Source: a virus (Duplodnaviria; Caudoviricetes). Taken from it: a stretch of DNA of 64,000 nt. The stretch is taken from positions 1-64,000 of the IMG/VR virus record IMGVR_UViG_3300028591_000073; one strand, 5' to 3'. This document shows positions 5,608 to 41,097 of the stretch, piece after piece; positions within the stretch are counted from its first letter, which is position 1; every line of letters begins with the position of its first letter. The notes beneath the pieces were generated by a model. The model saw nothing but the letters and a program-made list of their open reading frames with translations. It did not search any database and was not told the DNA's origin. The translations under genes were made by a program, and so were the position numbers.

Positions 5608-7221
5608 TCAATCGTTGTCATTATCATCACCCACTGTAACATCTAATATTTTATCTTTACCAGTGCGAGTTTTGTATGCCGCCTGTTTCTTCTCAGCACG
5701 TTGTTGCAGTTTCTCTTCAGAAATGTTATCACGCTGACCACAGCCATAGTCAATACATACCCAACAATCACGATCGCTTGACCACATGATATTTCCATCA
5801 TTAAAGTCGGTAACCACCAATCTTAATTCAGGATGACGTTGTACAAAGTCTATGAACTGTCCCTTTACTTGATTTAACATTTTTGGATTGGGGTGTTTCC
5901 CAACTTTATCGACAACACGTTCCATATCAATAACTGCACAGTCTTTACCATATTTCCCAACAATCGGAGCAGCAATCTTGATCATGTCCTCTTCTTTACT
6001 CCGCTGGATAAATTCACTCATTCTCACTTCGTTCTTGTTGGAAGTTAATCCACGACCACTAAACGCAATCTTGGTAATGATCTTTTTATCCTTCGGGAAG
6101 AGTACCATTCTGGTTTGCCCCATTGGCACTTTATTAAAGTCTACCTTATCACCACGGATTTCTTCATTTGCAATCAGCCATGTATTATATGCAACAAACT
6201 TTGGTGGTACACCAGCATCAATACACATCTCCACAAACTTTGCCAAGTCATTTTTATCCGTGATGGAGTTCACATATTGTGCTTTGATCATGTACAGCTT
6301 ACCAACTTCATTTGCCAAACCATTGATACCATGTTGACAAGTTTCCAATTCACGGACCAGTTGGTTCATTGCCGTAATTGTTTCAGAATCAAAACCTTTC
6401 AAGTGATTATTACCATTCTGGAATTTGTCCATTGCATTTGTTAACTGATTCACTTTAGCAGCAAATGTTGTCAATTCCTTCATGGTTAATCTTGTACCAC
6501 CAGCATTGAATTCACGACCGGGAGCATGGCTCTTCGCAACCGTCTTTTTGATGGCTTCACGAAGCTTTGCTTGGTCAACATTTCCACCATCTACCAAATC
6601 ACCGGCTTGTTCCACAATCCTTGCAAGATTCTCAAATGCTTCTGGATGTTTGATATAATACACCATGTTCTTGTAGATGATGGTATTGTCTTCCAGTCCC
6701 TTGATACCATGGGAGTTGGAAACATGTTCCAACTGCCCCTTTTCATTCTTGATATAGTTGACACCGAATAATCCGATGTATAAACCTTCATCTTGTGTAA
6801 TTTCCTTAATAAAAATAGGAGTTGCACTTAATACCACATTCTCTTTTCCTTTGAATGGTGTTTTCAAATTCTTTTCCACTTCCTGTTGTGCTTTTGGAAG
6901 TTTGGAACTCGGTACAACTTGTTGTGCAATTGCATTTGGAGTTTTTGTTGGTCTTTTACTCCCATTTTTCACATGGAAGATACCCTTTAACAAGTTAACT
7001 GCATGATCGGCAATACCACTTGTGGCTTTACTTGTTTTCTTAAGCAATTGCCATAGACGAATTCCCATGTCAGAACTTTCCAATGTGATTCTACCTTCTG
7101 CTTGTTTCATCAGGTATTGTTCCACCAACATATGTTCCTTTTCATTTTCTGCAACGATTGCATCAAATACATTCTGTTTGGATTCCACCATACACTCCCA
7201 GAAATATTCTAATTCTTCCAT
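5608..7221 (-). CDS. Putative virion-internal protein with C-terminal protein-kinase-like domain (paralog 1)
   Basis: Kinase motifs in canonical order: GQTRMV, ITKIA (Lys), NKNE (alphaC Glu), MERV, DFNDGN (catalytic loop), IDYG. N-terminus has the shared cargo motif and an ITLE|S site. Confidence 0.75.
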   Translation of the reverse strand: MEELEYFWECMVESKQNVFDAIVAENEKEHMLVEQYLMKQAEGRITLESSDMGIRLWQLLKKTSKATSGIADHAVNLLKGIFHVKNGSKRPTKTPNAIAQQVVPSSKLPKAQQEVEKNLKTPFKGKENVVLSATPIFIKEITQDEGLYIGLFGVNYIKNEKGQLEHVSNSHGIKGLEDNTIIYKNMVYYIKHPEAFENLARIVEQAGDLVDGGNVDQAKLREAIKKTVAKSHAPGREFNAGGTRLTMKELTTFAAKVNQLTNAMDKFQNGNNHLKGFDSETITAMNQLVRELETCQHGINGLANEVGKLYMIKAQYVNSITDKNDLAKFVEMCIDAGVPPKFVAYNTWLIANEEIRGDKVDFNKVPMGQTRMVLFPKDKKIITKIAFSGRGLTSNKNEVRMSEFIQRSKEEDMIKIAAPIVGKYGKDCAVIDMERVVDKVGKHPNPKMLNQVKGQFIDFVQRHPELRLVVTDFNDGNIMWSSDRDCWVCIDYGCGQRDNISEEKLQQRAEKKQAAYKTRTGKDKILDVTVGDDNDND

Positions 7222-7232
7222 AGTATCACCCC

Positions 7233-8930
7233 TTATTCTTTTGCAACATTCTTCAATGACTTTGGTTCTCCTCCATCATCATTTGTTTCGTTCTGTTTAT
7301 GATATTGCTTGATGGCTTTATCTGCCTTCTTGTCAACGACTTCTTGTTTCTGTGTATTACGTTTACCAAGACCATAGTCGATACAGATCCAACGATCTTT
7401 ATCACTCGACCACATGACATTGCCATCATTAAAGTCAGAAACAACCAATCTCAATTCAGGATGTCGATCAGTAAATGCTTTATATTTTGATTTCATATCA
7501 TTCAGAATCTGTAAGTCAGGATGTTTTCCAACTCTATCGACAACACGTTCCATTGCCAATATGGCATCTTCCGCATAAGTATTTGTAACAAGTGCGGAAA
7601 TATCAATCATCTCTTGTTCCTTGGAACGTTTTAAGAATTCTGAGAAACGAATTTCATTCTTATTGGATGTGATACCAATACCGGATGTGGCAATTTTAAG
7701 AATTTCCTTTTTATTATCATTCGGGAAGAATACACAACGTGTTTGACCACCGACAGGTTTATATCTGGATGCACTACCACGAATGCTTTCATTGGCGATT
7801 AACCATGTATTGTACGCGATATACTTGGGCGGGATACCATTCTGAATGCAATCATATACAAACTTTGACAACACATTTCTGTCAGTGATAGAGTTCATAT
7901 ATTTCAAATCAATCAGATGTACCTTTTGCATTGCATTCGATAAGGAAGATAATCCAAACTGAAAATGTTCTGTAATATGAACCAATGTATTCAAAGCTTG
8001 AATGACACTTGTATCCACATCATTCAATTTGTTATTACCATTTTGCGCAAAGTCCAATTGTTCTTCCAACTTATTCAATTTGGATTGGAACGTCGTGAGT
8101 TCTTGCATGGTTAATCTTGTACCACCAGCAGCAATACCATTTGCTTTATTGAATGCGGCACTGCTCAATTTATTAACTCTCTTGGCATATTCGGCTGGTG
8201 CAATTTCTTGTTCACCATTTGTGATCTTGAATCCCAATGCAATCAATTCACATAATGTTTCCATTTCACTTGGATGTTTGATGAAGTAAATCATGGAGTT
8301 TGTATAAACGAATAGAGATGCCAATGAAGGAACACCTTCTCCTTTATCAGAGACAGCTCTCACTTTACCACGATCATTCTTCACATAGTTTACACCCATC
8401 AAATCCACTTCGAAATTGTTATCATCATCAAATTCTTTGATTAAGATTGCAGAGTTAATCAATTCAATCTCATCTTGTTTGATGTCTCCTTCGTATGGCA
8501 CTTTTACACGTGCTTGTGATTCTGCCATCTTCTTCTCAGGATCCAATTTCTTACGAAGATTTTCATGTGCAATTTGAGATGCACTTTTCTTAGCACCACT
8601 CTTGCGGAATTTACCACTGAAACCGGCAGTAACATCTTTTACATGTGAAAACAATGTTTTCAATACCACAAGATTTCGACGAGTCAATGCACGAAGTCTT
8701 GTGATGATACTGCGGATGCCTCCCGCAGTATCTTTCACGCCTGTGTGTATTTTCTTTAAAAATGACTCTTGAACGAGTGTTGGATCTTTGTGATAGGTAA
8801 TGCAGTGATCAAGATATTCCCATTCTTTCATACTTTCTGTCACAAGATATTCTAACACCTTTTGTGTTGTTTCCAACTCATTTTCTTTTGCTTCCATTAC
8901 TTGATCGAGAATATAATCATTCAATGTCAT
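7233..8930 (-). CDS. Putative virion-internal protein with C-terminal protein-kinase-like domain (paralog 2)
   Basis: GGQTRCV, ILKIA, NKNE, MERV, DFNDGN, IDYG. Clear full-length paralog of 5608-7221. Has the cargo motif and an LVQE|S site. SD GAGGTG favours ATG 8930 over GTG 8939. Confidence 0.75.
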   Translation of the reverse strand: MTLNDYILDQVMEAKENELETTQKVLEYLVTESMKEWEYLDHCITYHKDPTLVQESFLKKIHTGVKDTAGGIRSIITRLRALTRRNLVVLKTLFSHVKDVTAGFSGKFRKSGAKKSASQIAHENLRKKLDPEKKMAESQARVKVPYEGDIKQDEIELINSAILIKEFDDDNNFEVDLMGVNYVKNDRGKVRAVSDKGEGVPSLASLFVYTNSMIYFIKHPSEMETLCELIALGFKITNGEQEIAPAEYAKRVNKLSSAAFNKANGIAAGGTRLTMQELTTFQSKLNKLEEQLDFAQNGNNKLNDVDTSVIQALNTLVHITEHFQFGLSSLSNAMQKVHLIDLKYMNSITDRNVLSKFVYDCIQNGIPPKYIAYNTWLIANESIRGSASRYKPVGGQTRCVFFPNDNKKEILKIATSGIGITSNKNEIRFSEFLKRSKEQEMIDISALVTNTYAEDAILAMERVVDRVGKHPDLQILNDMKSKYKAFTDRHPELRLVVSDFNDGNVMWSSDKDRWICIDYGLGKRNTQKQEVVDKKADKAIKQYHKQNETNDDGGEPKSLKNVAKE

Positions 8931-8940
8931 ATTTGTCACC

Positions 8941-11133: not shown

Positions 11134-11154
11134 GGAGAATTCTCCTTTCATTCA

Positions 11155-16039: not shown

Positions 16040-18394
16040 ATGAGTCGTTTAAGAAGAGATTATGATGAAAGCATCTTCCAAGAATCCAACAATGAAAAGA
16101 TTGATGACTTCAAGGAATGTGGTAATGGTTGTGGTTCAAAAGATGGAAAGAGCATTACATTTGGAACAGAATCTGCAAAGAAATCCAAAAGAAGAGATGT
16201 TGTAGATGATGTAGAAGAATGTGGAGATGGTTGTGGTACTAAAGTTGGATTTGGAAAAGAATCCGCAGATACTACAGCAAATGATACAAATGACACAGCT
16301 GAAGATATGGATGCTGGTGGAAATGATGATTCCAGTTCATCTGATATCGACACAACAACCGAAGCAGCAACTCCGAAGAAATCTAAGAAGCAGGATACCG
16401 ATTTGGAATTCGATGATGATGAAGAATGCGAAGACGGTGAATGTGATGATGACGATGTTGATGAATTCGACAAAGACATCGATGAAAAACCCAAAAAGAA
16501 ATCCAGGAAAAAGAAATCTAAGAAAACAGATACAGATGTTGACTTAGATGATGATACAGATGATTTCGATTCGGATAATGATGAATGCGATGACGATGAA
16601 TGCGATGACGATGAGTGTGATGATGACGAGTGTGACAAGAAACCCAAAAAGAAATCATCCAAGAAAAAGGGTGTCTCCGATGATGACTCCGATGAAGATG
16701 TTGATTTCGATGAAGAGGGTTTCTTTGATGTCTTTAAGAAAAAGAAGAAAGCAGATATCGATGATCCAGAACTTGCAAAGATGAAACAGCAACGTGAAAA
16801 TGCTGCTCGCAAGTTGCAGTCTTCAGCTAATATGTCTGGTGCAGACAAAGCCGCAAGAATCAGAGAAGCAAGAATTGCATTGACACAAGAAGAAGTGGCT
16901 TCCTCCTATTCCCCGAAGCCTGGAATGGTGGAACATGATGACACTGTAAAAGAATATGCATTGGAATCTTATCTGAACCAGATCTCCGAAGATCAATTGA
17001 AAACAGAACGTCAGATCATGACATCCATGATTGATGATTTGTATAAGGAATACATGCTATCTGATTTCTATGGTGAAGATGTTGTCGTAGAATCTGATGA
17101 AGAAACCATCGAAGATGGTGAAGAAGTTGTACAGGAAAGATTCTTCGGTGGTACAGGCAAAACCGCTTCTGGTTTGGTAAAGCCTGTTGCAAAAGGTGCA
17201 AAGCGTATTCTCGATTTCAAGAACGGTGTTCCTCGTAAAGGAATCATTCGTAACGTTGTACATCGTACCAGTAAGGATTTGAAAAAGGGCGGTGTATTAT
17301 ACAAGCTCGTGGCTTGGCCATTCCTGGTCATCAAGAATCTTGTACAAACACTTTATCACAAAACAAAATCCTTTATTGCATACAAAGGCTTGTTGATTGG
17401 TATTGAAGTGAAAATCAATCGTGAAATTTCCAAGATCAGAAAGAGAGCAAGAAATATGCCGAAGATGGCATTGGCTGGTGGTGCGGGTTATGCAACCGCT
17501 GCACTTGCAAGTATTGCGAAAGGTGAACCATTACCTTTGAAGCCGACAGACTTTATTGCCTCTGAAGGTGCTAAACTAGTGGAAGAACTTGGTCGAGATA
17601 CGATGCTTCGTGCATTAACTTCCAGATTGGCTGAAGCCATTGAAGAATCTCCTGAAAAAATTCGTGCAGCCATCCAGCAAGGGAAAGATAAGGTTGGTAA
17701 GGTAACTCCAGAAATGGGTAAAAATGCAAAGCCTGTAATTACCATGAATCAAAATAAAATCACCATGGAAGGTCTCGTGAACATGAATGGTATTTCCAAG
17801 ATGATGGATGATATCGATGATTGGGCTGATATTGCAGAAGGTGTTGCACTTGGTGTGCGCAGTGGAGATGAATCTTGTGTATCTGGTTATCTGTCTAAGA
17901 TTAAACAGATGGAAGAAACATACATGCCAGATGGTAAATTGAATCTTGGTATTATCTTTAATGCAAAATCCGGTGCTGTTAAGATTGCGGATTTCTATGA
18001 AGAACTCGCATCCAAATTGACAGAGAAAACAAAGAAACTGGAGAAGGGTTTGGAAAAGATTACCGGATTGGAAAATGCTGTGAAGGAAGGAAATATCAGT
18101 ATTGCTTCTGATACAGAAAAGGGCTTGGCAGAATTGAATACATCTGTACAGCATACATGTAATGCATTTGTGGAAATGATTGATTCCATCGATGATCTTG
18201 GTAAATATGTCATGAATACCATGGAAACATATCTTGGTTGTTTGGAACAAACAGAATCTGCTCTTGCAAATGGAAAAGGTAGAGATGATGGTGAGATGAC
18301 ATCAAATCATGATGAACCAGAATTCAAACCGAAGAAGAAACGTCACAAGTTATTTGGTAAGAAAGATCTTGAGGAAGATGATGTAGATGCTTGA
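16040..18394 (+). CDS. Head/scaffold-like protein with long acidic-basic disordered N-terminus and internal cargo motif
   Basis: D/E tracts alternate with KKxKKK blocks; (DDDEC)n repeat; IFQE|S, YALE|S, VVVE|S and VVQE|R sites; internal copy of the cargo motif (TERQIMTSMIDDLYKEYML). Confidence 0.6.
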   Translation: MSRLRRDYDESIFQESNNEKIDDFKECGNGCGSKDGKSITFGTESAKKSKRRDVVDDVEECGDGCGTKVGFGKESADTTANDTNDTAEDMDAGGNDDSSSSDIDTTTEAATPKKSKKQDTDLEFDDDEECEDGECDDDDVDEFDKDIDEKPKKKSRKKKSKKTDTDVDLDDDTDDFDSDNDECDDDECDDDECDDDECDKKPKKKSSKKKGVSDDDSDEDVDFDEEGFFDVFKKKKKADIDDPELAKMKQQRENAARKLQSSANMSGADKAARIREARIALTQEEVASSYSPKPGMVEHDDTVKEYALESYLNQISEDQLKTERQIMTSMIDDLYKEYMLSDFYGEDVVVESDEETIEDGEEVVQERFFGGTGKTASGLVKPVAKGAKRILDFKNGVPRKGIIRNVVHRTSKDLKKGGVLYKLVAWPFLVIKNLVQTLYHKTKSFIAYKGLLIGIEVKINREISKIRKRARNMPKMALAGGAGYATAALASIAKGEPLPLKPTDFIASEGAKLVEELGRDTMLRALTSRLAEAIEESPEKIRAAIQQGKDKVGKVTPEMGKNAKPVITMNQNKITMEGLVNMNGISKMMDDIDDWADIAEGVALGVRSGDESCVSGYLSKIKQMEETYMPDGKLNLGIIFNAKSGAVKIADFYEELASKLTEKTKKLEKGLEKITGLENAVKEGNISIASDTEKGLAELNTSVQHTCNAFVEMIDSIDDLGKYVMNTMETYLGCLEQTESALANGKGRDDGEMTSNHDEPEFKPKKKRHKLFGKKDLEEDDVDA
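16574..16636 (+). repeat. 15-bp coding tandem repeat, about (DDDEC)x4
   Basis: gatgaatgcgatgac repeated with synonymous changes. Confidence 0.85.
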
Positions 18395-23585: not shown

Positions 23586-24428
23586 ATGAGAAAATCTACA
23601 CAAAGTGCTTCTTCTAAATATAATACAGCATGCTTTATTCAAGAATCACCACAATCTTCTGAAATGAAGAAGGATGGTTATATCGTAAAGAAAGCAACAA
23701 CTGGACAGCCTTTCTGTATCTTTGAAGCAACACTACAAACATTTGATTGCTATAATCGAATGGGTAGAAGATATGATGCACACAATGTTTGTTCTGTCAT
23801 TGATAATGATGAAAGAATCCAAACATTGTTGAAGCAGAATAAATGGAGAGGTGAACTCAATCACCCCAATCCAGATATCAAAGGACAACAATATTCGGAT
23901 ATTCGTATGACGATTCCTGAACCATTGAATTCCTCACACTTTATTTCACATCCCCGTTTGGAAGGTTCCAAGTACAAAGGAAGAATTACAACACATCCCG
24001 GCACAAAGGCCGGAATCTGTGCATCTTCTGAAGTCATTGATTTGGGAATCGTACCTTCCTTCTCCGTACGTTTGTTGGGAAATATGATTCCAAATGCACC
24101 ACGTAATCAGCCGAACATGAGAGTCACAAAGGTCATCACATGGGATATGGTTGACTTCCCATCTCATGTGGGTGCGGATGCGGATATTGAAGCAAAGTAT
24201 ATGGAAGCCGCAACAGAAACACTATTCCTCAAAGATCTTGCGGATTATTGTCATGACCAATCTGAAACACTGAAGGTTGTTTGTGAATCATTCCAAATTT
24301 CCAATGATGAAATCATGGGAATTAAAGACGGTAACATTGTTGTGGAACAACATGACATGACAAAAATGTGGATTCCATTACCAACGGATATTCGTCGTGA
24401 AGCATTATCTATTTTAAGGGGAGTGTAA
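23586..24428 (+). CDS. Prohead core protease, T4 gp21-like
   Basis: NRMGRRY, GELNHP (His), PSFSVRLLG (Ser), ITWDMVDFPSH (Asp). Self-cleavage-type sites FIQE|S and YME|A. Confidence 0.9.
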   Translation: MRKSTQSASSKYNTACFIQESPQSSEMKKDGYIVKKATTGQPFCIFEATLQTFDCYNRMGRRYDAHNVCSVIDNDERIQTLLKQNKWRGELNHPNPDIKGQQYSDIRMTIPEPLNSSHFISHPRLEGSKYKGRITTHPGTKAGICASSEVIDLGIVPSFSVRLLGNMIPNAPRNQPNMRVTKVITWDMVDFPSHVGADADIEAKYMEAATETLFLKDLADYCHDQSETLKVVCESFQISNDEIMGIKDGNIVVEQHDMTKMWIPLPTDIRREALSILRGV

Positions 24429-27257: not shown

Positions 27258-27866
27258 ATGGAAGAAGACAATTTTTTTGTCATGGTGATGGAAGCCGGTG
27301 GCAGTATTGCAGAACCATTTGATGCTGGTGGAGCAGACATGGGCATGGATGCTTCAGCAGGTGCTCCGCCCGATGCCTCTATGGGTGATCCGCCCGCATT
27401 ACCAGATGGCGGTGGAATGGACATGGGTGACATGGCATTCGACGCAGGTGATGGAATGGATATGGGTGGAGACCCAGCCGCTGGAGAAGATGGACAACAA
27501 GAAGAAGGTACCCAGAATCCCGGTGCTAAGTTATCTGATAAAGCAAATTCAATTTTGAATCAGAGATTGTACACACAGATGATGGATCGTAACCAAGAAA
27601 TTGAAGATACAATTGAAAGTATCAACCGATTAATTCCATTACTTCCATATGAAGCAATTAGAGAAAACGATGATAATATGACTCGATTAAAAGCTGCACT
27701 TGATAAAGGGAAATCCTACTTGATCGGAAACTTTGTTGGTGCAAAATATGGTGAGAATTTAATATTCTTTCAAAAACTCGATGCTTTATATACAATGCTA
27801 ATCCAGCAATTAAATGACAACTTGAAAAAGCTAAAAGATTCAAACGAGAATAATCAATTGAATTAA
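27258..27866 (+). CDS. Head protein preceding the capsid gene (scaffold/core-like)
   Basis: MVME|AG site, G/M/D-rich disordered N-half, helical C-half. Confidence 0.55.
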   Translation: MEEDNFFVMVMEAGGSIAEPFDAGGADMGMDASAGAPPDASMGDPPALPDGGGMDMGDMAFDAGDGMDMGGDPAAGEDGQQEEGTQNPGAKLSDKANSILNQRLYTQMMDRNQEIEDTIESINRLIPLLPYEAIRENDDNMTRLKAALDKGKSYLIGNFVGAKYGENLIFFQKLDALYTMLIQQLNDNLKKLKDSNENNQLN

Positions 27867-27891
27867 TATGATACCAAAGGAGATGTTTTCT

Positions 27892-30054
27892 ATGGCATAC
27901 GGACGTTCCGCTGCCTCACATGGCACATGGTTCCAGGAACAGCAAGCAATGATCAATTCCGCATCTCAGACAGAACTTGACAACTTGTCTGATGGATTTG
28001 ATAGACACTTTGAAAATACTGTTGGAACACTGAAAAGAGCATATAACGGCGTCAATGTAATGAAGGACGCAAAGAGAATGATGGAGAATCCTGCCATCAT
28101 GGAAGAATACAAGCAGATGCTGCTTGAACCGGTTATTCAGGAATTGACAGCTCTGAAAGATGAAACAGAAGTGGAAGCTGAAAAGGTACATCTGGAATCT
28201 GTCATCGATCAGATTGATAAAGCATGGGATTCTTCTGCACAGTCCTTCCTGGTACAGGAATCTTATAACGTATCTAACTATCTACCGCTTGCAACTCTGG
28301 ACTTCCCGGCTCTCGTAAAGCAGTATGTGAGATTCCTCGGTAAGGAACTGATTCCTGTTCAGACTGCAAACTCTACAAATATCGAACAGCGTATCTTCGT
28401 AAAGTATCTGGTAAACAATCAGACTGGTGAAGAATATGAAACACCAAAGATCTGGTTCGTAAAGGATGAAGATGGTAAGCCGCTGTGGAAGAAACTCTGG
28501 AATGCAGGTAAGGGTTACAGAATCAAGGACAATGCTCCTCTGCTGATTTCCCAAATTCAGGCTTCTCCGAACAAGAAGTTTGATATGTATACATGGCTTC
28601 TGGATGATGATGGCAATGATTTCTCTATCGACAGAAAATCCAATCTAAGAGCCAGACTATCTTACGACTTCAACATCCAGTATGTGCAGATTGGTACTGC
28701 AGGCACTGATATTGATACTTATGCACTCACCACTTCTCAGCCGAGTGATTGGGCTACTGCATATACAAATTACTATACCTCTACTGGTACAACATATACT
28801 GCTGTAACTGGTGCATCTGCTCCTACATGGGAAGCTGGCAAATACTATAAGAAGACCGGTACGATCACTGGTGGTTCTAAAGTAAAGCTTCCGGGTGCTG
28901 GTATCGCAATCGACGTACAGAACGGTGGTGTATTCGAAAACGGTAGAATCACTGAAGAAATGGTTCTTCCGATTGTTGATGCAAACAACCTGCCGACTGG
29001 ACAGACTGTAACTGGTATCTCTGACTACCTCGCAGGTATTGTTGACTTTGTAAAGGGTTATGTCACTGCATCTACATGTGGTGTGATCACCGGTTTCTAT
29101 ATTCAGGGTAGAATGTCCAATGAAACCAACCTGAGAACTGTTGGTTTCCGTGAATATCCTGAAATTCGTAAGTTCCTCATTTCCGATGGTATGAGATTCC
29201 AGCTTCCGTTTACCGTAGAAGACTTTGCTGAAGCTAACGCTTCTCTCAACTTCAACCTCTACAACAGACTGGTTCAGGAACTCGTAACAGCTCAGGAAAT
29301 GTTCGAAGACCAGTACATTCTGGACTTCCTGGAAGATGAATTTGCAAAATATGATGGATATGAATCTGATGTATATGCACTGGATTCTTATACACATACT
29401 GAATATGTTGATCTGGATCCTTGCTCCATTTCCAATAGCTTTGCTGGAGATCCTTGGGAATACAGAACCAATGCAATTCATAATGCAATCAATTCTCTGA
29501 TCTATGAACTCTGTGACAGAGGTAAATTGGAAAACCTCGGCTTTGTTATCTATGCAAACCCGAAGGCTACCAGACTGCTCAAGAAGTTTGTATCTTGGAC
29601 AGTAACCAAGTCTACCAATATCGGTGGTATCATGATGAACCATGCATTTGGTGTTATGACTGATTCTGAAATCCCGATTCGTGTTGTTGCATCCAACAGA
29701 ATTGATGCATATATGACAATTGATGCATATCAGGATGGTGCTGCTACAACAGACAAATCTCGTGAATACTTCTTCCGAATTGTTGCATATCCGATGGATA
29801 AATTCCATATTGGTTACAAGCATCTGAGATTTGCACGTCACCTCACCAACTCTCCTGAAAATGCTGGTTATGCTGATATCAACAATCCTGGCGGTCAGGC
29901 TGTACTGGTTACTACATCTTCTCAGTACAGAACAATCGCAATCCAAGGTATTCAGGGTCTGGTAATCTGTAAGAATACCAAGCTTGTTCCTGATATCAAG
30001 GCTGGTCTGGTTCAAACAACAACAGCTTCTGGTGGATCCGGTACAGGCGGCTAA
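27892..30054 (+). CDS. Major capsid protein precursor
   Basis: Last gene of the protease operon; strongly biased codon usage (CTG, GGT, AAC, TTC); helical propeptide ending FLVQE|S; internal IYANP motif; followed by the longest hairpin of the palindrome family. SD AAAGGAG favours ATG 27892. Confidence 0.8.
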   Translation: MAYGRSAASHGTWFQEQQAMINSASQTELDNLSDGFDRHFENTVGTLKRAYNGVNVMKDAKRMMENPAIMEEYKQMLLEPVIQELTALKDETEVEAEKVHLESVIDQIDKAWDSSAQSFLVQESYNVSNYLPLATLDFPALVKQYVRFLGKELIPVQTANSTNIEQRIFVKYLVNNQTGEEYETPKIWFVKDEDGKPLWKKLWNAGKGYRIKDNAPLLISQIQASPNKKFDMYTWLLDDDGNDFSIDRKSNLRARLSYDFNIQYVQIGTAGTDIDTYALTTSQPSDWATAYTNYYTSTGTTYTAVTGASAPTWEAGKYYKKTGTITGGSKVKLPGAGIAIDVQNGGVFENGRITEEMVLPIVDANNLPTGQTVTGISDYLAGIVDFVKGYVTASTCGVITGFYIQGRMSNETNLRTVGFREYPEIRKFLISDGMRFQLPFTVEDFAEANASLNFNLYNRLVQELVTAQEMFEDQYILDFLEDEFAKYDGYESDVYALDSYTHTEYVDLDPCSISNSFAGDPWEYRTNAIHNAINSLIYELCDRGKLENLGFVIYANPKATRLLKKFVSWTVTKSTNIGGIMMNHAFGVMTDSEIPIRVVASNRIDAYMTIDAYQDGAATTDKSREYFFRIVAYPMDKFHIGYKHLRFARHLTNSPENAGYADINNPGGQAVLVTTSSQYRTIAIQGIQGLVICKNTKLVPDIKAGLVQTTTASGGSGTGG

Positions 30055-32914: not shown

Positions 32915-34495
32915 ATGACACAAACAATGTTTGATATTATTAATGAATATGCAGTATCTGCTGAATTGGATGCAGCTTATGATTTAATGAATGATTGTAT
33001 TAAGAATTCTACAATTTTGGAGCAATATGATTTCGATGAATCTATGATTCCTGAGGAGTTCTTAATGGAAGCTGCTACAACAAATAATGGTCCCGGATTT
33101 GGGACAAGAGTGAGAGCTCGTATGTATGAACATCGTGTAAAAACAGACCGTGCAATTGATCAAGCGAATGATAGACTTGCAAGACGTCCTGGTGAAAAAA
33201 TGTTGACAAGATTCCTGCTATTCTTACCTCGTCTGATTATGGCGATTATCAATTTCTTTAGATGGTTGATTCGCAGATTGACTCGTCGTAGAAATACTGT
33301 ACACACTGCTGCAAAAGCTGTAGCTGGAGCAAATACTGCAACTAAAAATAAAATTAATACTTCCTGGAATACTACGACATTCACCGTAAACATTCGCTCT
33401 GGTAGTACATTGTCATCTGCGACAAAAGCCGCACTCAGCAGTGGTCATCAGCTTCCTGGACCAACACCAAAAGCTGGAAGTACATTTGTCGTTGGTAATA
33501 AAAATGGAAGACCTGCGTCTGTAGGCCATCAGCTTCCGGGTGGTGCAAAACAAGGAAGCAATAATGGATCAAATCCATCTGGTGGTGCTGGTAGCGGAAG
33601 TCGTGCAACAACGGGTCGTCAGCTTCCGGGTGGAGGCACTAGTTCAAATAAAGGTAACGGTCAGCCTCCGGCAAATGTTTCATCAGGTAATTTTGAAAGC
33701 TGGGCAAACCAGGCCAAGTCTACTGATGGACTTAAGAAAGAAAAGACAGTAAAAGAAGTCGTTGATGAAAAATTCACAAAGACTGCTGTTGATGCAGCTG
33801 TTACTGGTAAATTCAGAGGTCTCCCAATTCTTAATAAGAAATTTGTTTCTGCATTAAATAATGCAAGCAAAGCACTTGACGATTTGAATGACTGGTGTGG
33901 CAGACTTGATAGAGCTGATAATAAGGTTACTTCAGGCGGTGGTCACATCAATGATCATGGTGATAAATACACAATCGGATTTAATCAAGCACAGGGATGG
34001 GCACGTTCCTTAGAGACAAAGTCTAATAAACTTCGTGAGTGCTATAATAAAATGGTAGAAACCATTAAGAGTGAAGATCATACAAGCTTTACAGGTCAAC
34101 AACTGACTGAAGCATATGATGCAATTTCCGATACATTGAACCATATGAATGATACACTCACAAATCTTCAGCATGAAGTAAGTGGTTCTGGAAGTTCTCA
34201 GCTTGCAAAAATTGTAAAGGCATTGCAGAAGAAAGATGCTGAAATTGATCCTCGTGCACAAGGTGCATATATGAGTGGTGTGAAAGCATTGGCTGAAGCA
34301 ATGACAAAAATGAAAGAAGCAGTTGCTATGACATCTGAAGGTCTGGATTACACTGTTCATTGTTGCGAACTCATTATTGAAATGATCAAACAGGCTGGTG
34401 GTAATGTCGAAAACCCAAGAACAGTTGGATTCTCCACTGCGGTAAGAAATGAACGTGGTCAACTCAACGACAGTGAAAAGATGCCGGAAGACTGA
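32915..34495 (+). CDS. Putative internal head (cargo) protein
   Basis: Cargo motif, FLME|AA site, helix MLTRFLLFLPRLIMAIINFFRWLIRR, three G(H/R)QLPG repeats. Confidence 0.65.
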   Translation: MTQTMFDIINEYAVSAELDAAYDLMNDCIKNSTILEQYDFDESMIPEEFLMEAATTNNGPGFGTRVRARMYEHRVKTDRAIDQANDRLARRPGEKMLTRFLLFLPRLIMAIINFFRWLIRRLTRRRNTVHTAAKAVAGANTATKNKINTSWNTTTFTVNIRSGSTLSSATKAALSSGHQLPGPTPKAGSTFVVGNKNGRPASVGHQLPGGAKQGSNNGSNPSGGAGSGSRATTGRQLPGGGTSSNKGNGQPPANVSSGNFESWANQAKSTDGLKKEKTVKEVVDEKFTKTAVDAAVTGKFRGLPILNKKFVSALNNASKALDDLNDWCGRLDRADNKVTSGGGHINDHGDKYTIGFNQAQGWARSLETKSNKLRECYNKMVETIKSEDHTSFTGQQLTEAYDAISDTLNHMNDTLTNLQHEVSGSGSSQLAKIVKALQKKDAEIDPRAQGAYMSGVKALAEAMTKMKEAVAMTSEGLDYTVHCCELIIEMIKQAGGNVENPRTVGFSTAVRNERGQLNDSEKMPED

Positions 34496-34511: not shown

Positions 34512-35996
34512 ATGACCGATTTTATGATGAGAGAACTGGAATTAGAAAAATATTCCAGTGAATTTGATACATGTATTGCAATTCTTGAATATGCCCAAAA
34601 ATGTAATCTTCTAGAATCTTATTATTCTGAAGGATTATCTCCCATATCTCCAGCTCCCGCTGGTTCACAACCACCAGCTGGTGGTGGAGCAGGTGCCCCC
34701 GCACCAGCACCAGCTGCAGCACCGGCTCCGAATCCAAATGCTCCAGGAAATATTAAACCAACTTCTGGAAACACCATTCCGAGTCCACAGGCTGGTGCTA
34801 CAGGTGCCGGTGCGACATCTGCTCAAACAAAAGTAATGAAACCCTCAGGTGGTAATCCAACACAGAAAAGGAACATTTTCCAAAGAATCTTTGATGCAAT
34901 TATTGGAGTCTTCAAAAAGGTTGGTGAATTTTTCACTGGTAAACAAACAGAGGGAATTGTTGATGAGGCAACACAAGTTGTTGAAAAAGCCAGATCCAGT
35001 GGTATGTCTGAAGATGAATTCATTTCTCAAATGATGACAAATTGGCAGAATAAATCCGGTGGTATGTTCAAAGGACCGATGGATGATTCAACAAGTGGTT
35101 CACAATCTTCAAAACCAACAAATGTAGATACTGGTAAATTGGAGGAATTCTATCGAATCTGGTTCAGAGAAGGAAACATTCCCACCCACATGTCAAAAGA
35201 CAGTGTAAATGCGATGCAAGCTTTGACTGATTTGATTAATCAGATTGCAACAAAGTTAAAGGGATATACAGCACAACAGATTACCGCAGAAGGAAATGGT
35301 ATGATTCAACAATTGAATCAGAGCTCAGAAGTTTTGATGAAAGCATTGAATCAAAATGTACAATCCCCTCCTTCTGTTTGGAAAGCTTATTTCTTTAAGG
35401 CTGGAAGTATGTGCAGAAAAATGAACGATGCATTTTCCAACTTACAGAAGACAATGAATCAATTATATGCTGATCCAGAAAAAGGTCCAGCAGTCGATCA
35501 GGCATTTGGTCAAATGACAGGTCCGATGAAAGCTGTTATGAATGCGGCAAAAATTGTGAATCAAGAAGTGCAAGCAATTCAATTAACTGCTGCTGATGCA
35601 AATTATGCAAAACATAAAGGTGCTGAAGGACAGAGATTGTTTGGCACAAGTGACCATGTGATGTCCAAGGGTAAACAAGACACGATCAAAGCTGGTCAAC
35701 AGAGTTATGAAGAAAAACTTCGCGCATCTGGCGATTACAGTGAGAAAGAAATTCAGCGACTTGTTAAGATGGCAGGTAAAGAATTTGGTAAAGAATATAG
35801 CAACAAATTTGATCAAGCACATGATGAAGCGACTGCTTATTATGACATCAGAAATGGTAAACGTCGTAAAGCTGATCGTAAGGAAAAACAAGCAGCAGAC
35901 TTGGAAGAAAAAGCAAGAAAAGCGCAAGAAGCTGCAGATAGAGCAAAGGCTAAAGCCGATGCATTATCTGCAAGAAAAGCTGCAAAACGTGGTTAA
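34512..35996 (+). CDS. Putative internal head (cargo) protein
   Basis: Cargo motif, YYSE|G site, Pro/Ala linker, helix IFQRIFDAIIGVFKKVGEFF. Confidence 0.65.
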   Translation: MTDFMMRELELEKYSSEFDTCIAILEYAQKCNLLESYYSEGLSPISPAPAGSQPPAGGGAGAPAPAPAAAPAPNPNAPGNIKPTSGNTIPSPQAGATGAGATSAQTKVMKPSGGNPTQKRNIFQRIFDAIIGVFKKVGEFFTGKQTEGIVDEATQVVEKARSSGMSEDEFISQMMTNWQNKSGGMFKGPMDDSTSGSQSSKPTNVDTGKLEEFYRIWFREGNIPTHMSKDSVNAMQALTDLINQIATKLKGYTAQQITAEGNGMIQQLNQSSEVLMKALNQNVQSPPSVWKAYFFKAGSMCRKMNDAFSNLQKTMNQLYADPEKGPAVDQAFGQMTGPMKAVMNAAKIVNQEVQAIQLTAADANYAKHKGAEGQRLFGTSDHVMSKGKQDTIKAGQQSYEEKLRASGDYSEKEIQRLVKMAGKEFGKEYSNKFDQAHDEATAYYDIRNGKRRKADRKEKQAADLEEKARKAQEAADRAKAKADALSARKAAKRG

Positions 35997-36782: not shown

Positions 36783-36802
36783 TACAGAAAGGGTGAAAGA
36801 AA

Positions 36803-38506
36803 TTGAATCTAAATAATGTAATTTGTGAAATTGATGATGCACAGGTATTTTATGATACAGAATCCCTTCTTCAGTTATGTGAATACTATCAGAAAGAATT
36901 GTCAATGAGAATCTACATGGAGAATATGGGTTACTACATGGAAGATGAAACACCACCTGACAATACATCTACAACTGATAACAAACAGTCAGATGCTGAG
37001 GTTGATGTAGGAAATAGTGCCCCATCTCAGGGTGAACAAAAACAACCACCTGCTCTGGTACAACAACAATCTGGTGATAATAATCAACAACCTGAAACTG
37101 AAGAAAAGCCTGTTGTGTCAAATGATAATAAACCCAACGAAAATGCTGAAAATAATGATAATCAAGAACCAGGATTCTTACAAAAAATCATCGATACTGT
37201 TAAAAAGATTTTTATGTGGATTCCAAATTTGATTACGAAATGTATTGAGAAAATGGTTGACAAAAAACTTGCTGAAAGTAAACAGGAATTTTCAAATATA
37301 GTTGACAATATGTCAGATCAAGAGATTGATACATTGCTACAGAAGATTGAAGCCAAGAAGGGAACGCAAGGCGATGGTCAACCACTGACAACGGATACAC
37401 AAACGCCTGTAGCTGATCAACCATCTTCAACCGTGCCAACTGGAGAAGAAACAAAGGTGGATTATTCCATACATGATTTCCGTTCATTTGATGAAATTTA
37501 TCAAGAACTGGGAACTGCATTCGGTGTTGCTATGGGAGCGAAAGGTGCAAGAACTGCGGCAAGTAATGAAATTGCACGACAAAATGTTATGGCTTCTGCA
37601 ACTGGTCAAAACAATTTGTCAGATGCAGAACTTGCAAAAAGGTCTTCCCTTGGTATGGTAGAAAATAGTGCAAAACAGGTTGCAACGACTGCGGCAAAAG
37701 CTGGTATGGTTGCCGGAGCTACTGCTCTTGGTGGAAGCGGTATCGTGTTAACAGGTGTTGGTTTGCTTGCAGGTATTGGTGCTGGAAAGTTATGGGATTT
37801 TGTTAGTAACAAAATTAAAGATGCTCGTGATAAAGATAAAATCACACATCTTCCAAGATATGAATTGATCGAAAAAGCTTGTCAATCGAGTGACCAAGAA
37901 CTTTCCAAAAAAATACAATTGCTTCAACAAGGTATCCCCAAATCAGATCCAAATGCTCCAAAACCGGATATCAAACAATCATTACAAAATATCTTACAAA
38001 ACTTCACATTGGTTGAAGATAAAGAATCGGAACAAACGATTCGTGTGATGAATTTGTGGTATGAGAAATTTGTGAAGTCATCCGCATTATTTGCAACTCC
38101 ACAACAAACGCAAGTCTCAAACATTACACCGGAAGAAGATCAAGCAATGTCAGAATGTGAACGTTTCGTAAAAGATATGAATGATCAAACCATGAACCCA
38201 TTACTGACCCAATTAAAACAGAAGTCTGAGCAACTTGTCAACTGGTTTAATGATCCAAGCAATCCCATTTTTGGAATGCAGACATCCGCTCGAATCGCAC
38301 AAGGAATTGCACAAAAAGCCCGTGTGGAAATGGGAATACAAGAAGACCAAGAAAGCAAAGGTTTGTTACAAAAGATTCTAGGTGTATTAACCAAGATTGG
38401 TCAAGGAATCATGTCGGTTGTAAATAATATCATAAACATTATTCGTATTGGTGGAGATGTAATACAAACTGTTGTGAATGGTGTCAATTCTGCTAATGCA
38501 ACATAA
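36803..38506 (+). CDS. Putative internal head/ejection protein with glycine-zipper hydrophobic segment
   Basis: TTG start with SD; cargo motif; YYME|D and IYQE|L sites; helix FLQKIIDTVKKIFMWIPNLI; AGMVAGATALGGSGIVLTGVGLLAGIGAG. Confidence 0.65.
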   Translation: MNLNNVICEIDDAQVFYDTESLLQLCEYYQKELSMRIYMENMGYYMEDETPPDNTSTTDNKQSDAEVDVGNSAPSQGEQKQPPALVQQQSGDNNQQPETEEKPVVSNDNKPNENAENNDNQEPGFLQKIIDTVKKIFMWIPNLITKCIEKMVDKKLAESKQEFSNIVDNMSDQEIDTLLQKIEAKKGTQGDGQPLTTDTQTPVADQPSSTVPTGEETKVDYSIHDFRSFDEIYQELGTAFGVAMGAKGARTAASNEIARQNVMASATGQNNLSDAELAKRSSLGMVENSAKQVATTAAKAGMVAGATALGGSGIVLTGVGLLAGIGAGKLWDFVSNKIKDARDKDKITHLPRYELIEKACQSSDQELSKKIQLLQQGIPKSDPNAPKPDIKQSLQNILQNFTLVEDKESEQTIRVMNLWYEKFVKSSALFATPQQTQVSNITPEEDQAMSECERFVKDMNDQTMNPLLTQLKQKSEQLVNWFNDPSNPIFGMQTSARIAQGIAQKARVEMGIQEDQESKGLLQKILGVLTKIGQGIMSVVNNIINIIRIGGDVIQTVVNGVNSANAT

Positions 38507-38526
38507 TATGATCGAAGGTGAGAAAT

Positions 38527-41097
38527 GTGATATATAAAGAGGATATAGAACTCCAGACTTTTTACACGGAGATGGATGTTCTTGAAAAATTGATTATGTT
38601 TTATGATAAACAAATCACAATGGAATCGTATCTATTTGAAAATGGATGTGAAGTGGATCCATATCATGATGCATTTATTTTTAAAGAAGATGGCGAAACT
38701 CAGCCAAATCCGACACCGCAACAGCCTGAACCAAAGCCACAGCAACCCCAACCTCAGCCACAACCAGACACTTCTTCTGCAAATAGTGCACCTGATGCAT
38801 CTGCTGAACAAAAACAACCACCTGCTGTGGTACAACAACCCGATGCCAATAATGCACTAAAACAAGATGTAAAGCAGCCTAATGCTGGAGAAAATCAACA
38901 GCCGCAAAATCAGCAACCTACCCCAGGTGAGAGACAAGCTGAAGCCGAAAATCAACAACAGCAACAAGAACAGAATGGTGAGGTTCCAAAAACGAATTGG
39001 CAGAAATTCGTTGATTTTGTAAAAAAATTGATTCATGATATTGCACAAGGAATTTCCAAATTAATGGGAAGGATTATGGATAAAACATCCGTTGCAATTG
39101 AGCAAAAGAATGAAGCTGCGATTGAAAAGGCTGGTGATGAACATCCAGATTTGATTGAGGGATTGGAAGCATTTGCAAATGAAAGTGCGAATTCCAATAG
39201 TACACCAACAGTTCAGCAAGCGGCATTTATAAAATATGCAGAACCAAATGAGATGGTCATGCAAGAGTCAGGTGACGAAGTTGTCCAAGAAGGTGTATTA
39301 GATGCCGCCAAATTTATTGTCGAAAAGATTACTGAAAAGCACATGGGAGTTATTCCCATTCCGGATACAGGAAAGGGATTCATCGGATTGATGGAGTCAC
39401 TAAGTGTGTTAAATGTCAGCAATCTTGGTGATTATGTGATGGATGGTACGAGAAACATGGATAATGAAGTTGGTGCAAAAGGCAGTTTCGCTTATGCGAC
39501 AACGAATATCAGATGGCTTGACATTATGAAGAATCTAAAGATGCATGGTGCTGAAATTGATAATCTCGGTCAATTTATCCAAGAATTATCAAAAACAAAA
39601 GATGGTACATCTACAATTCCTATGGATCAGATATTTGTGATCGGGCCACCATTAACGCTTTTTGGTCTCCCGATACCTGAACCAATTCAAAAGGTATTTG
39701 CAGGCATGTCTGATTTACTTGGTGGAAAAATTCCTGGAACAAGTGCAGTTACATCATTGCCATGGCTATGGATTATTTTGGATCTTATTACAAAAACATA
39801 TCGTAGAATGAAAGAGCCGAGCAATAATGATAATGCAGCGACAGCTGTTGTTAATGTTTGTACAAGATCATTGAAGAACATTGCTGATGTATTTTGTTCT
39901 GCAGCAGAAGCTTGTAATACCGTAATTGATCAAGCAATACAGGTAAATGGTTCTAAAGATATAGAAGAAGCAGAAAATGCTTTAAACAATCTGGACAACT
40001 TTTTCCGTGGAATGGATCAAAATGGTGAAAATACCAATCCGACAAACACGCTAATGCACGTGCTACAAACGAAAGTGTACGCTGGTGTTAACGAAAATCG
40101 ATTGTTGGGAAATTTACAAATGATAGTCAATAAAATCGATGATGCATTTTCTAAACCGGATACATTTGCAAGTAACATGGTTGATCTATTGTCAGGAACT
40201 CAGAATCTTGGAACTGTAGAGAGAACCACACAAGGTGGATTGGATTTCTCCGGTGGATTGGATTTCTCCGGTGGTGTGATGAAAACTTTAACAAATGAGA
40301 ATGGTGAGAAGATTGGTTTAAAAATTAATTCTGACAAAAAAGCAGGCGTTAAGTTAGAACAAAGACATAGTATGTGGACACGATTGGCAGTTGGATTTAT
40401 TGGCAAATCTAAACTTCTGATACCAATGATGATAGGTCTAAATACACTAACAATATGGTGCACATCCTTTGTCTCCAATGTTTTAAATGGCTTTATTCAG
40501 TCTTGGGAAGCATTTGTATCTGAAACTCGCGGTGATAAAGTAGAAATGAAACTTGTTCAGAATCAGATGGGTGAAGAAGTTCCAGTTGAAATGACACCTG
40601 AGGAGAAACAAATGATGGATAATTGGAGAGCGGATCCTAATAAAAACAAGGGTAAAGAACCACCAATCAAAACAACATTTGTTACAGTCGGAGCTGGTCA
40701 GAAGAGTACTAAGGATGCATTCAAAGACATGATGTCAAATACAGCCCAAGGTGTCCAGAATGCACGAGATGAATTAAATCAGAGAGTTAATCAAGATGAA
40801 AGTAATTTCAGAGCAAATATGGCAACGATGAAAATTGCACAAGCTGACAATGGAAATGGTCTTGTGCAACAAGATGCTGGGCAAAGATTCCGAGACACAG
40901 GTCAATATCTTAGCTCTAACGCTGGCTCTGATCTTACATCCGATATTAATCAAACAGCACAAAATATCGGTTCTCAGATTAAAACAAAAATCGACCAAGG
41001 ATTTGATCAAGAAAATAAAGCACGTGTTGATCGAATGCGGCATTCAAATGATGGCACATACGGCTTCAATATGCCATTTAACGTTCCAACTTATTAA
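38527..41097 (+). CDS. Putative internal head/ejection protein, N-terminal paralog of 36803-38506
   Basis: Cargo motif; IFKE|D, VMQE|S and VVQE|G sites; helix WQKFVDFVKKLIHDIAQGISKL; several hydrophobic segments. AAGGTG SD favours GTG 38527. Confidence 0.65.
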   Translation: MIYKEDIELQTFYTEMDVLEKLIMFYDKQITMESYLFENGCEVDPYHDAFIFKEDGETQPNPTPQQPEPKPQQPQPQPQPDTSSANSAPDASAEQKQPPAVVQQPDANNALKQDVKQPNAGENQQPQNQQPTPGERQAEAENQQQQQEQNGEVPKTNWQKFVDFVKKLIHDIAQGISKLMGRIMDKTSVAIEQKNEAAIEKAGDEHPDLIEGLEAFANESANSNSTPTVQQAAFIKYAEPNEMVMQESGDEVVQEGVLDAAKFIVEKITEKHMGVIPIPDTGKGFIGLMESLSVLNVSNLGDYVMDGTRNMDNEVGAKGSFAYATTNIRWLDIMKNLKMHGAEIDNLGQFIQELSKTKDGTSTIPMDQIFVIGPPLTLFGLPIPEPIQKVFAGMSDLLGGKIPGTSAVTSLPWLWIILDLITKTYRRMKEPSNNDNAATAVVNVCTRSLKNIADVFCSAAEACNTVIDQAIQVNGSKDIEEAENALNNLDNFFRGMDQNGENTNPTNTLMHVLQTKVYAGVNENRLLGNLQMIVNKIDDAFSKPDTFASNMVDLLSGTQNLGTVERTTQGGLDFSGGLDFSGGVMKTLTNENGEKIGLKINSDKKAGVKLEQRHSMWTRLAVGFIGKSKLLIPMMIGLNTLTIWCTSFVSNVLNGFIQSWEAFVSETRGDKVEMKLVQNQMGEEVPVEMTPEEKQMMDNWRADPNKNKGKEPPIKTTFVTVGAGQKSTKDAFKDMMSNTAQGVQNARDELNQRVNQDESNFRANMATMKIAQADNGNGLVQQDAGQRFRDTGQYLSSNAGSDLTSDINQTAQNIGSQIKTKIDQGFDQENKARVDRMRHSNDGTYGFNMPFNVPTY
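40234..40274 (+). repeat. Exact 18-bp in-frame tandem duplication (GGLDFS)x2
   Basis: ggtggattggatttctcc repeated twice, then ggtgg. Confidence 0.9.

Follow-up and report, generated by a model that had tools for sequence, protein, structure and literature searches.

An N-terminal tag shared by otherwise dissimilar proteins of a jumbo phage most likely serves as a removable address label for the head, because these proteins start with the same acidic helix and this helix ends in the cut site of the capsid protein. Judging from sequence, we consider it about 65% probable that the tag is a capsid-targeting propeptide removed by a protease, and that it represents the first of two parts of a loading module on internal head proteins in a phiKZ-type clade of the ruminant gut. 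The analyzed window is the 64-kb head-gene region of IMGVR_UViG_3300028591_000073, a complete 294.5-kb phiKZ-type jumbo phage from a sheep gut metagenome, which is represented in metagenomes alone. Homologues of phiKZ gp80, gp99, and gp118 and a fragment of the virion RNA polymerase reveal a distant phiKZ kinship of the head module; neither this fragment nor most of the proteins encoded in the region carry the tag. The idea of a head-loading label is already known from phage T4, and this particular tag and its spread over hundreds of protein clusters appear to be undescribed. Ribosome-binding sites are strong and of the AGGAGG type, compatible with a host from the Bacillota; the Gram-positive host assumed in an earlier note on this DNA remains conjecture.

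The earlier note had described the motif in nine proteins. All nine quoted segments were found at their genes, and the invariant Lys as well as the Leu, Ile, or Met six residues before it hold true for each of them. The copy in 16040 (genes are named by their first coordinate) is truly internal, as had been claimed, because no Shine-Dalgarno sequence precedes the internal ATG at position 16925. Shine-Dalgarno sites also agree with the proposed GTG start of ORF 38518 at position 38527, but for 7233 they indicate the ATG at 8930 instead of the GTG at 8939.

An HMM built from the nine 27-residue segments, as the note had suggested, did not recover left-out groups in a leave-one-group-out analysis, the model having been overfitted on too small a sample. 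A 65-column profile based on relatives' proteins only, from which the near-identical L001 and L003 were left out, bore out the significance of the motif against shuffled sequences: eight genome copies were the top eight of 956 ORFs (E 3e-8 to 0.025). Five of them scored 16-29 bits compared with ∼12 bits for the best of 20x shuffles, while 36803, 16040, and 32915 with 10-13 bits lie at about this ceiling. With an iterated profile, which takes in the genome's own copies, scores were 20-51 bits versus a shuffled ceiling of 8.5 bits. The N-terminus of the 5608/7233 family aligned with the relatives' tag profile end to end over 55 columns (hhalign probability 90.8%, E 1.2e-6), and 20024 is linked to the tag via syntenic orthologues in the related genomes L002 and L004, whose matches are better. 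Searching all six frames of the genome with alignment A1 gave exactly 11 matches (E 1e-13 to 2e-7), the nine noted earlier and two beyond the window, and no further tag match up to E 1. Ten copies are N-terminal and begin at residues 1-6, the exception being 16040. By these sequence comparisons, the tag is a real homologous module. Five related complete genomes contain 1-8 copies each; since two of these have only 1-2, the tag is not the sole loading route in the clade.

Tagged genes and relevant head genes. Positions refer to the window unless marked as genome positions; ↓, predicted cut.
Feature	Position	Strand	Tag	Predicted cut	Remarks
Tagged protein, 537 aa	5608..7221	-	aa 1-48, nt 7078-7221	after Glu48 (T-L-E↓S)	kinase-like C-terminal domain; basic helix from about aa 52
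Tagged paralogue of 5608, 39% identity	7233..8930	-	nt 8766-8930	V-Q-E↓S	start ATG 8930
784-aa protein, sole internal tag copy	16040..18394	+	aa 307-351, nt 16958-17092	V-V-E↓S	second cut-like site I-F-Q-E↓S at aa 12-16
Tagged protein, 378 aa	18884..20020	+	aa 1-45, nt 18884-19018	I-F-Q-E↓G	amphipathic helix aa 66-102
Tagged protein, 356 aa	20024..21094	+	aa 1-35, nt 20024-20128	T-M-E↓A	weakest tag match; basic helix from aa 41
Prohead maturation protease	23586..24428	+			Pfam Peptidase_S80, 33 bits versus 23.4 cut-off
Acidic Gly/Met/Asp-rich protein, 202 aa	27258..27866	+			between protease and major capsid protein
Major capsid protein, 728 aa	27868..30054	+
Tagged protein, 526 aa	32915..34495	+	nt 32915-33070	L-M-E↓A	h-h-P-R-L-I helix at about aa 100-125
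Tagged protein, 494 aa	34512..35996	+	nt 34512-34631	Y-S-E↓G	Pro/Ala-rich linker of about 80 aa, then amphipathic helix aa 121-138
Tagged protein, 567 aa	36803..38506	+	nt 36803-36943	Y-M-E↓D	TTG start; helix aa 127-150
Tagged protein, about 856 aa (ORF 38518)	38527..41097	+	nt 38527-38688	F-K-E↓D	GTG start at 38527
Tagged protein outside window	genome 120849-122498	-			six-frame search with A1
Tagged protein outside window	genome 266817-270563	-			six-frame search with A1

The tag is a strongly acidic amphipathic helix of 35-60 residues (64 profile positions) with a mean net charge of -11.9, and its conserved residues share one helical face. AF2 models residues 2-46 as one long helix with a pLDDT of about 90; this single-chain model (pTM 0.42) contains no partner and no confident tertiary packing of the tag with the basic helix described below. 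Among 1.84 billion representative proteins, 798 clusters contain the module at E<=1e-3 (191 of them at E<=1e-10), and its position is nearly always within residues 1-70; in 148 of the 150 best database matches, the tag lies within residues 1-82. Lys34 is invariant in 114 full-length representatives, and L7, I10, V24, Y32, I38, E40, Q54, and E55 are at least 90% conserved. Past the second helix, no position of these 114 sequences reaches a 50% majority residue, and tagged proteins range from about 200 to 1250 aa in length.

At its end, the tag carries the motif hydrophobic-x-x-Glu followed by Gly, Ala, Ser, or Asp, which is found in 130 of 133 representatives and in all 11 genome copies. A Phi-x-E site and a subsequent basic amphipathic helix had been proposed for each copy, and both are present after the tag; in 5608, the site exists but follows T-L-E, not Q-A-E. 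The same motif occurs in the major capsid protein as L-V-Q-E↓S (position two is Ile in some) at aa 128-132, with Glu131 encoded at nt 28258-28260. It is kept in 28 of 28 aligned major capsid proteins and marks the boundary between the variable N-terminal 130 residues and a near-invariant body. Further occurrences are F-I-Q-E↓S at aa 17-21 of the S80 prohead protease itself and sites in 54418 and at the N-terminal end of 16040. The 27258..27866 product, a scaffold candidate judging from its position only and without a family match, has V-M-E↓A at aa 10-13. Genome-wide, the motif occurs 33 times, compared with 7.7 ± 2.7 times in shuffles. In this genome, the Gln that the wider family has at P2 often gives way to other residues.

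From this motif we infer that the S80 protease cleaves the tags after Glu. The proposed site is hydrophobic at P3 and P4, and a hydrophobic P3 is also a feature of T4 gp21 sites, whereas a small residue occupies P3 in the sites of S80 proteases characterized to date. The phiKZ site, attributed to Thomas et al. in 2012, is reportedly S/A/G-x-E. For SPN3US, the S80 protease site is A-x-E, again with a small P3 (PMC10052503). Because of this preference of the studied enzymes, the specificity proposed here is an assumption.

The cut site is followed by a linker of 3-110 residues and then by the basic amphipathic helix. For the best 18-mer after the tag, the hydrophobic moment is 0.71 and the charge averages +3.6, being positive in 98% of cases. 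This helix often contains h-h-P-R/N-L-I; the more general motif h-h-P-R/N/K-h-h is present in 75 of 133 proteins (56%), compared with one in shuffles.

The earlier note's proposal of a cleaved packaging tag is the best-supported reading in its propeptide part, given the S80 gene, the capsid motif, the location in the head module, and the 798 clusters. While the prohead is being assembled, the acidic helix would dock on the scaffold core or on the major capsid protein, either at its inner face or at its propeptide, and thereby carry the attached protein inside. The S80 protease would then cut the tagged proteins after Glu, just as the same motif would let it trim residues 1-131 from the major capsid protein. 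The mature cargo would stay in the head, its new N-terminus lying close to the basic helix, and by analogy with the phiKZ inner-body and SPN3US ejection proteins it probably enters the host together with the DNA. One cargo family (5608, 7233, and 120849) would be a protein-kinase-like enzyme, and cargo genes would turn over between strains as whole cassettes.

The closest parallel in T4 is the capsid-targeting sequence (CTS) of IPI-III and Alt (Mullaney and Black 1996, as cited in PMC5694885). Like this CTS, the tag is an N-terminal signal common to otherwise different proteins and ends in a predicted prohead-protease site with Glu at P1. The T4 CTS is removed after loading and its cargo is ejected into the host; the corresponding steps are predicted here from sequence. 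In contrast to the 10-20 residues of the T4 CTS, the tag is a 35-60-residue helix with its own conserved pattern and invariant Lys, a second conserved element follows its cut site, and the protease is of the S80 type (phiKZ gp175) instead of T4 gp21.

The tagged proteins also resemble the phiKZ_IP family (PF12699: gp93, 94, 95, 162, and 163) and SPN3US gp53/gp54 in being paralogous, fast-varying, and encoded near head genes. N-terminal parts of those proteins are cut by the S80 protease, whose gene is present here, but the site motif differs. The T4 CTS and the SPN3US propeptides have been proposed to direct proteins into the head, and phiKZ/SPN3US propeptides are suspected to work like a CTS (PMC5694885, PMC10052503). 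These papers describe no common motif across families and state that the role of the propeptides needs study. SPN3US propeptides are mostly 111-254 residues long, unlike the much shorter tag. None of the 11 tagged proteins of this genome reached the PF12699 gathering score (27 bits) or matched at E<0.01; the best six-frame match was sub-threshold with 12.9 bits (120849, aa 51-98). PF12699 is nevertheless the commonest weak Pfam match, seen in two of 114 representatives (best E 1.1e-4). The tag profile did not match the phiKZ proteins, and gp92-97 of phiKZ have only a short L-x-S-L-E as a common start.

A further parallel is the delta-domain or propeptide of HK97-fold major capsid proteins, together with cargo loading by scaffolds in general. 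The delta-domain functions within the procapsid until the maturation protease cuts it off. Like the tag, it is a helical N-terminal segment with a site of the capsid-maturation type at its end. Unlike the delta-domain, the tag is borne by non-capsid proteins, at least 11 per genome here, and shows no sequence similarity to the capsid propeptide; the six-frame search of the whole genome with the tag profile did not match the major capsid protein.

The payloads are indeed mostly diverse, but the nine proteins described as divergent are not independent of each other. Paralogy extends over the full length in 5608, 7233, and 120849 and over about 220 residues in the pair 36803 and 38518; the 11 tagged genes represent about seven payload groups. 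Among 132 proteins, the C-terminal payloads fall into 60 unlinked groups. Between strains, tagged genes are gained, lost, or replaced as a whole, including the tag. One close strain lacks exactly 32915-34495, an entire tagged gene. In L001, nucleotide similarity ends at 36808 and a different tagged gene replaces 36803 from its first bases, and L002 has tagged genes at other positions between conserved head genes. No case of tag transfer onto a known foreign domain was seen in these strain comparisons.

We weighed the targeting propeptide against other explanations. A chance or compositional likeness of acidic helical N-termini, to which the failure of the nine-segment HMM to generalize might point, was ruled out: the best genome copy reached 29 bits with the relatives-only profile, far above the shuffle ceiling, and the hhalign result, the clean separation of all 11 copies, and the hundreds of N-terminal clusters leave it next to no probability. 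We regard it as unlikely that the tag remains in the head as an anchor on the capsid lattice, with a primarily structural role; cleavage would then free the C-terminal domain inward and cargo loading would be a by-product. [quoted passage not shown] The one-sided conservation with its invariant Lys would be expected of a fixed docking site, and the weak PF12699 hints point in the same direction. However, gp93 uses an arm plus a helix-loop-helix instead of a single acidic helix, the phiKZ proteins show no sequence match to the tag, and 1 to 11 copies per genome fit an essential lattice element badly. Moreover, most propeptides of T4 and SPN3US exit the head (PMC10052503).

It seems quite improbable that the acidic tag masks a basic, possibly membrane-active or DNA-binding helix until it is inside the prohead, with cleavage as activation and targeting residing in the basic helix or another part. 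The opposite charges, the joint retention of both elements in 133 representatives, and the cut site between them would fit such a role, but the linker varies from 3 to about 110 residues, AF2 does not pack the two helices confidently, and charge masking leaves the invariant Lys unexplained, with conservation highest in the tag. There is little likelihood, too, that all these proteins represent one fast-evolving paralogous core or inner-body family, in which the N-terminus reflects common descent plus a shared assembly role and the payloads are diverged helical copies. Tandem genes, clear paralogue pairs, and PF12699 as the commonest weak match are in line with such a family, as are jackhmmer searches that tie 32915, 34512, 36803, and 38518 to many relatives via the first 60-200 mature residues. 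The globular kinase-like domain next to the long coiled-coil-type Pfam matches in 266817, the wide range of lengths, and the 60 unlinked groups argue against it, and since common descent does not conflict with targeting, this view rivals the propeptide reading only in part. Finally, as a rather doubtful extension, tag, cut site, and basic helix could form a portable two-step delivery cassette, in which docking is followed by cleavage that unmasks a cationic helix acting after ejection. The acidic helix would then dock whatever protein is attached at a fixed lattice site of the capsid or scaffold, and the composition of the cargo would depend on relative expression. The basic helix would, for example, insert into or remodel the host membrane (at the phiKZ-type early-infection vesicle stage) or move the payload along the DNA.

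The heads of giant phiKZ-type phages are filled with dozens of proteins, many of which are injected. What directs each of them to the prohead is unsettled, and this clade supplies a clear consensus signal on solid statistical grounds, which has a defined end point and is followed by a second conserved element. Because the signal recurs on hundreds of protein clusters, the question becomes testable. If the two-step cassette existed, it would provide a general and engineerable rule for loading giant phage heads with proteins and delivering them. Under the targeting reading, the tag would also mark a large and fast-turning-over set of probable injected proteins in ruminant-gut phages, which are candidates for host take-over.

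These candidates include the kinase-like enzyme, the only recognizable enzyme fold among the payloads. In an alignment of 35 sequences, including all three paralogues of this genome, Lys384, Glu398, Asp472, Asn477, and Asp491-Tyr-Gly are invariant with canonical spacing. AF2 models most of aa 180-530 with a pLDDT >85. The best Foldseek matches of this payload are all RIO (RIO2), Bud32, OspG, and NleH (E about 1e-3, probability 0.9-1.0), and VIA gave Z scores of 5.5-6.0 to kinases and APH, a range under the level that the tool calls safe.

The earlier note had proposed that nine proteins of the window share a capsid-loading tag, a cleavage site and an amphipathic helix, and all nine segments quoted there are present in the window. 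A hidden Markov model built from these 27-residue segments missed the left-out groups in a leave-one-group-out analysis but found a tenth copy outside the window, at the N-terminus of gene 266817 (genes are named by coordinate). Its failure on left-out members is due to the small sample and overfitting, and was solved by using profiles from relatives. An eleventh copy, in gene 120849 outside the window, was recognized by inspection. A scan of loci from the relatives yielded dozens of matches at residues 10–50 of open reading frames (ORFs), compared with a shuffled maximum of 3.8 bits. A profile made from relatives only placed eight copies of the genome at ranks 1–8 among 956 ORFs, and this profile can be aligned end to end with the 5608/7233 family N-terminus (hhalign probability 90.8%, E 1.2e-6). 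With an alignment of 55 tag sequences, a six-frame search of the genome returned exactly 11 copies and no further match up to E 1. Five related complete genomes carry 8, 5, 6, 1 and 2 copies. Among 1.84 billion representative proteins, 798 clusters matched the profile at E ≤ 1e-3, and for 191 of them E was ≤ 1e-10. Of the 150 best database matches, 148 begin within residues 1–20 and end by residue 82. Every tag-bearing database member that we looked up is a metagenomic protein without a name. We are virtually certain that the tag module is real.

An alignment of 114 full-length representatives revealed one invariant Lys and eight positions conserved in at least 90% (Leu7, Ile10, Val24, Tyr32, Ile38, Glu40, Gln54 and Glu55). 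The tag is followed by a second element with the majority consensus I-L-x-x-I-P-R-L-I, beyond which no residue attains a 50% majority at any position and the columns average 8% identity. In a set of 133 representatives, the tag is strongly acidic (mean net charge –11.9) and ends with hydrophobic-x-x-Glu followed by Gly, Ala, Ser or Asp in 130 cases. For the best 18-mer after it, the hydrophobic moment is 0.71 and the charge +3.6, and an h-h-P-R/N/K-h-h motif occurs in 75 of the 133 at a median of 21 residues past the tag, compared with one occurrence in shuffles. The 11 copies of the genome show the same layout. AF2 models residues 2–46 of 18884 (54-sequence alignment) as one helix with pLDDT of about 90, followed by a disordered segment surrounding the cut site and by another helix (66–102); in 5608, the tag is again a single helix (residues 2–39). 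The basic helix may bind DNA or the capsid, or act on membranes after ejection.

Shine-Dalgarno sites favor ATG 8930 over 8939, GTG 38527 over 38518 and ATG 270554 over 270563, so that the tag lies 1–3 residues from the initiator Met; the longest-ORF starts at 8939, 38518 and 270563 are probably wrong. In 16040, the tag is internal, preceded by an acidic extension of 300 residues. An internal start at ATG 16925 was rejected, as a ribosome-binding site is absent there and a strong one is present at 16040. Within the extension, a Cys-Gly-x-Gly-Cys-Gly-Ser/Thr-Lys motif, possibly a metal site, occurs twice, and residues 12–16 form an I-F-Q-E|S site. Another protein, P0085, combines a tag with a folate-dehydrogenase domain and looked like domain shuffling. 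Because its tag is internal (residues 114–172), behind a fragment of an upstream gene, we attributed the combination to a gene-call fusion and gave it no weight as evidence.

The virus record is a single contig of 294,548 bp, rated complete by CheckV, with the window as its initial 64 kb. PHROGs and Pfam also identified virion structural proteins among the head-module genes, and the genome encodes weak homologues of phiKZ gp80, gp99 and gp118. Neither the region nor the major capsid protein nor a typical tagged protein has a nucleotide or tblastn match among 50,697 deposited phage records; IMG/VR contains about 30 relatives, whose major capsid proteins are 61–99% identical. The DNA originates from a sheep gut metagenome. 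Bovine and goat gut sequencing runs gave word matches covering a small share, and one bovine run (X5) was confirmed. Contigs identical to parts of the region were found in RNA libraries; since DNA carry-over is possible, we make no claim of expression. The Gram-positive host suggested in the earlier note is a conjecture that would rest at most on strong AGGAGG-type ribosome sites.

Coordinates of head-module genes, tagged genes and further features in the window or the complete genome.
Feature	Reference	Coordinates	Strand	Basis
Acidic extension before the internal tag of gene 16040	Window	16040–16960		
Virion RNA-polymerase beta fragment	Window	21117–21854		PHROGs/Pfam
Prohead protease, Peptidase_S80	Window	23586–24428		33 bits (cut-off 23.4)
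Major capsid protein, 728 aa	Window	27868–30054		PHROGs/Pfam
Kinase-like C-terminal paralogue	Window	5608–7221	–	Invariant catalytic residues, fold
Kinase-like C-terminal paralogue	Window	7233–8930	–	Invariant catalytic residues, fold
Kinase-like C-terminal paralogue, eleventh tag copy	Genome	120849–122498	–	Invariant catalytic residues, fold
Tenth tag copy	Genome	266817–270563	–	Nine-segment model
Untagged protein	Window	54418–56028	–	Cut-like motif
Untagged protein	Genome	143821–146043	–	Cut-like motif
Untagged protein	Genome	179635–184569	–	Cut-like motif
Untagged protein	Genome	187121–188098	–	Cut-like motif
Untagged protein	Genome	188220–191006	–	Cut-like motif
Untagged giant ORF, 3264 aa	Window	41173–50967	+	

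In 28 aligned major capsid proteins, the motif F-L-V/I-Q-E|S-Y-N is kept in all 28, with the Leu absent from two relatives. It lies at residues 128–132 of the window protein, where a variable N-terminal part meets a near-invariant body, and corresponds in position to the maturation cut of phiKZ gp120 at Glu163|Asn164 (PMC11297242) and that of SPN3US gp75 at Glu130 (PMC5694885). BLASTP detected no similarity between the major capsid protein and gp120, so the two cleavage sites could not be aligned. Defined as two hydrophobic residues, Gln, Glu and then Gly, Ser, Ala or Asp, the five-residue motif occurs 33 times in the genome, compared with 7.7 ± 2.7 in shuffles, and is present in the protease (residues 17–21), the N-terminus of 16040 and 54418. 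In 5608, the predicted cut was placed at T-L-E|S because the site residue, Glu48, is invariant in a 35-sequence alignment of the 5608/7233 family. Several large untagged proteins carry one to five copies of a cut-like motif, which makes them candidates for further prohead-protease substrates, such as portal or other head proteins. The cut motif is closer to the hydrophobic-x-Glu rule of T4 gp21 than to the small-x-Glu rule reported for S80 proteases. For the phiKZ protease, Thomas et al. reportedly described S/A/G-x-E in 2012. The S80 protease of SPN3US follows A-x-E (PMC10052503).

Given the common cut motif, the S80 protease and the location in a head module, the most economical reading of these sequences is a protease-removed propeptide on internal head proteins. 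We put the probability that the tag is a cleaved propeptide of virion proteins at roughly 0.8. Its action as a loading signal appears somewhat more probable than the opposite, by analogy to the T4 capsid-targeting sequence (CTS), to a result on SPN3US gp47 (quoted in PMC5694885) and to phiKZ gp93 and gp162, whose N-terminal regions bind the capsid (PMC11297242). For ejection of the cargo, we consider the odds even. Two rival explanations differ from the propeptide reading only in the fate of the tag after cleavage. An AF2 model of residues 1–125 of 18884 did not place the tag against the basic helix with confidence and thus lends no support to a masking model.

The concept itself is already known from T4 and phiKZ/SPN3US, and the tag described here is a variant of it, set apart from the T4 CTS by its length, its sequence and an architecture of two parts. 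We found no counterpart in Pfam, PHROGs or the papers searched, and the tag profile matched neither the whole phiKZ record nor gp79–97. Membership in PF12699 was rejected, as all matches were sub-threshold. A short L-x-S-L-E-like start is common to the N-termini of phiKZ gp92, 93, 94, 95 and 97, and the published first cut of gp93 (after Glu13) lies within it. This start may be a miniature counterpart of the first turns of the tag, the likeness being very short.

The payloads are diverse: among 132 tagged proteins, the parts more than 80 residues past the tag make up 60 groups with no link between them at phmmer E 1e-3. In our genome, 5608, 7233 and 120849 belong to a single family, 36803 and 38518 have about 220 residues in common, 34512 and 266817 are weakly linked, and 18884, 20024, 32915 and 16040 lack partners. 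Searches of the tagged proteins in PHROGs and Pfam gave nothing meaningful, PDB sequence searches with four payloads were empty or returned coiled-coil noise alone, and leads from the protein atlas stayed below 0.8 for 18884 and were absent for 38518. The 5608 family has invariant residues in kinase spacing (Lys384, Glu398, Asp472-x4-Asn477 and Asp491-Tyr-Gly). A confident model of its C-terminal domain matches only kinase folds (RIO2, Bud32, OspG, NleH, DYRK1A and APH; Foldseek probability about 1, VIA Z 5.5–6), the first four being nearest. This domain could be a virion-delivered kinase.

The cargo genes behave as cassettes. In a contig from run X3, which belongs to a strain 95–99% identical, 32895 and 34498 are separated by just 11 other bases, so that exactly the gene 32915–34495 is missing, a presence/absence cassette. 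In the relative L001 (about 96% identical), nucleotide similarity does not extend past window 36808, which is five bases inside gene 36803, and two other tagged genes follow (window 36803–40054 compared with L001:19010–22187). The conserved head genes of L002 align at 70–80%, but the tagged genes occupy different positions between them, such as the interval from the 22373 homologue to the protease. Directly 3′ of the cargo-gene cluster of the window lies the untagged giant ORF.
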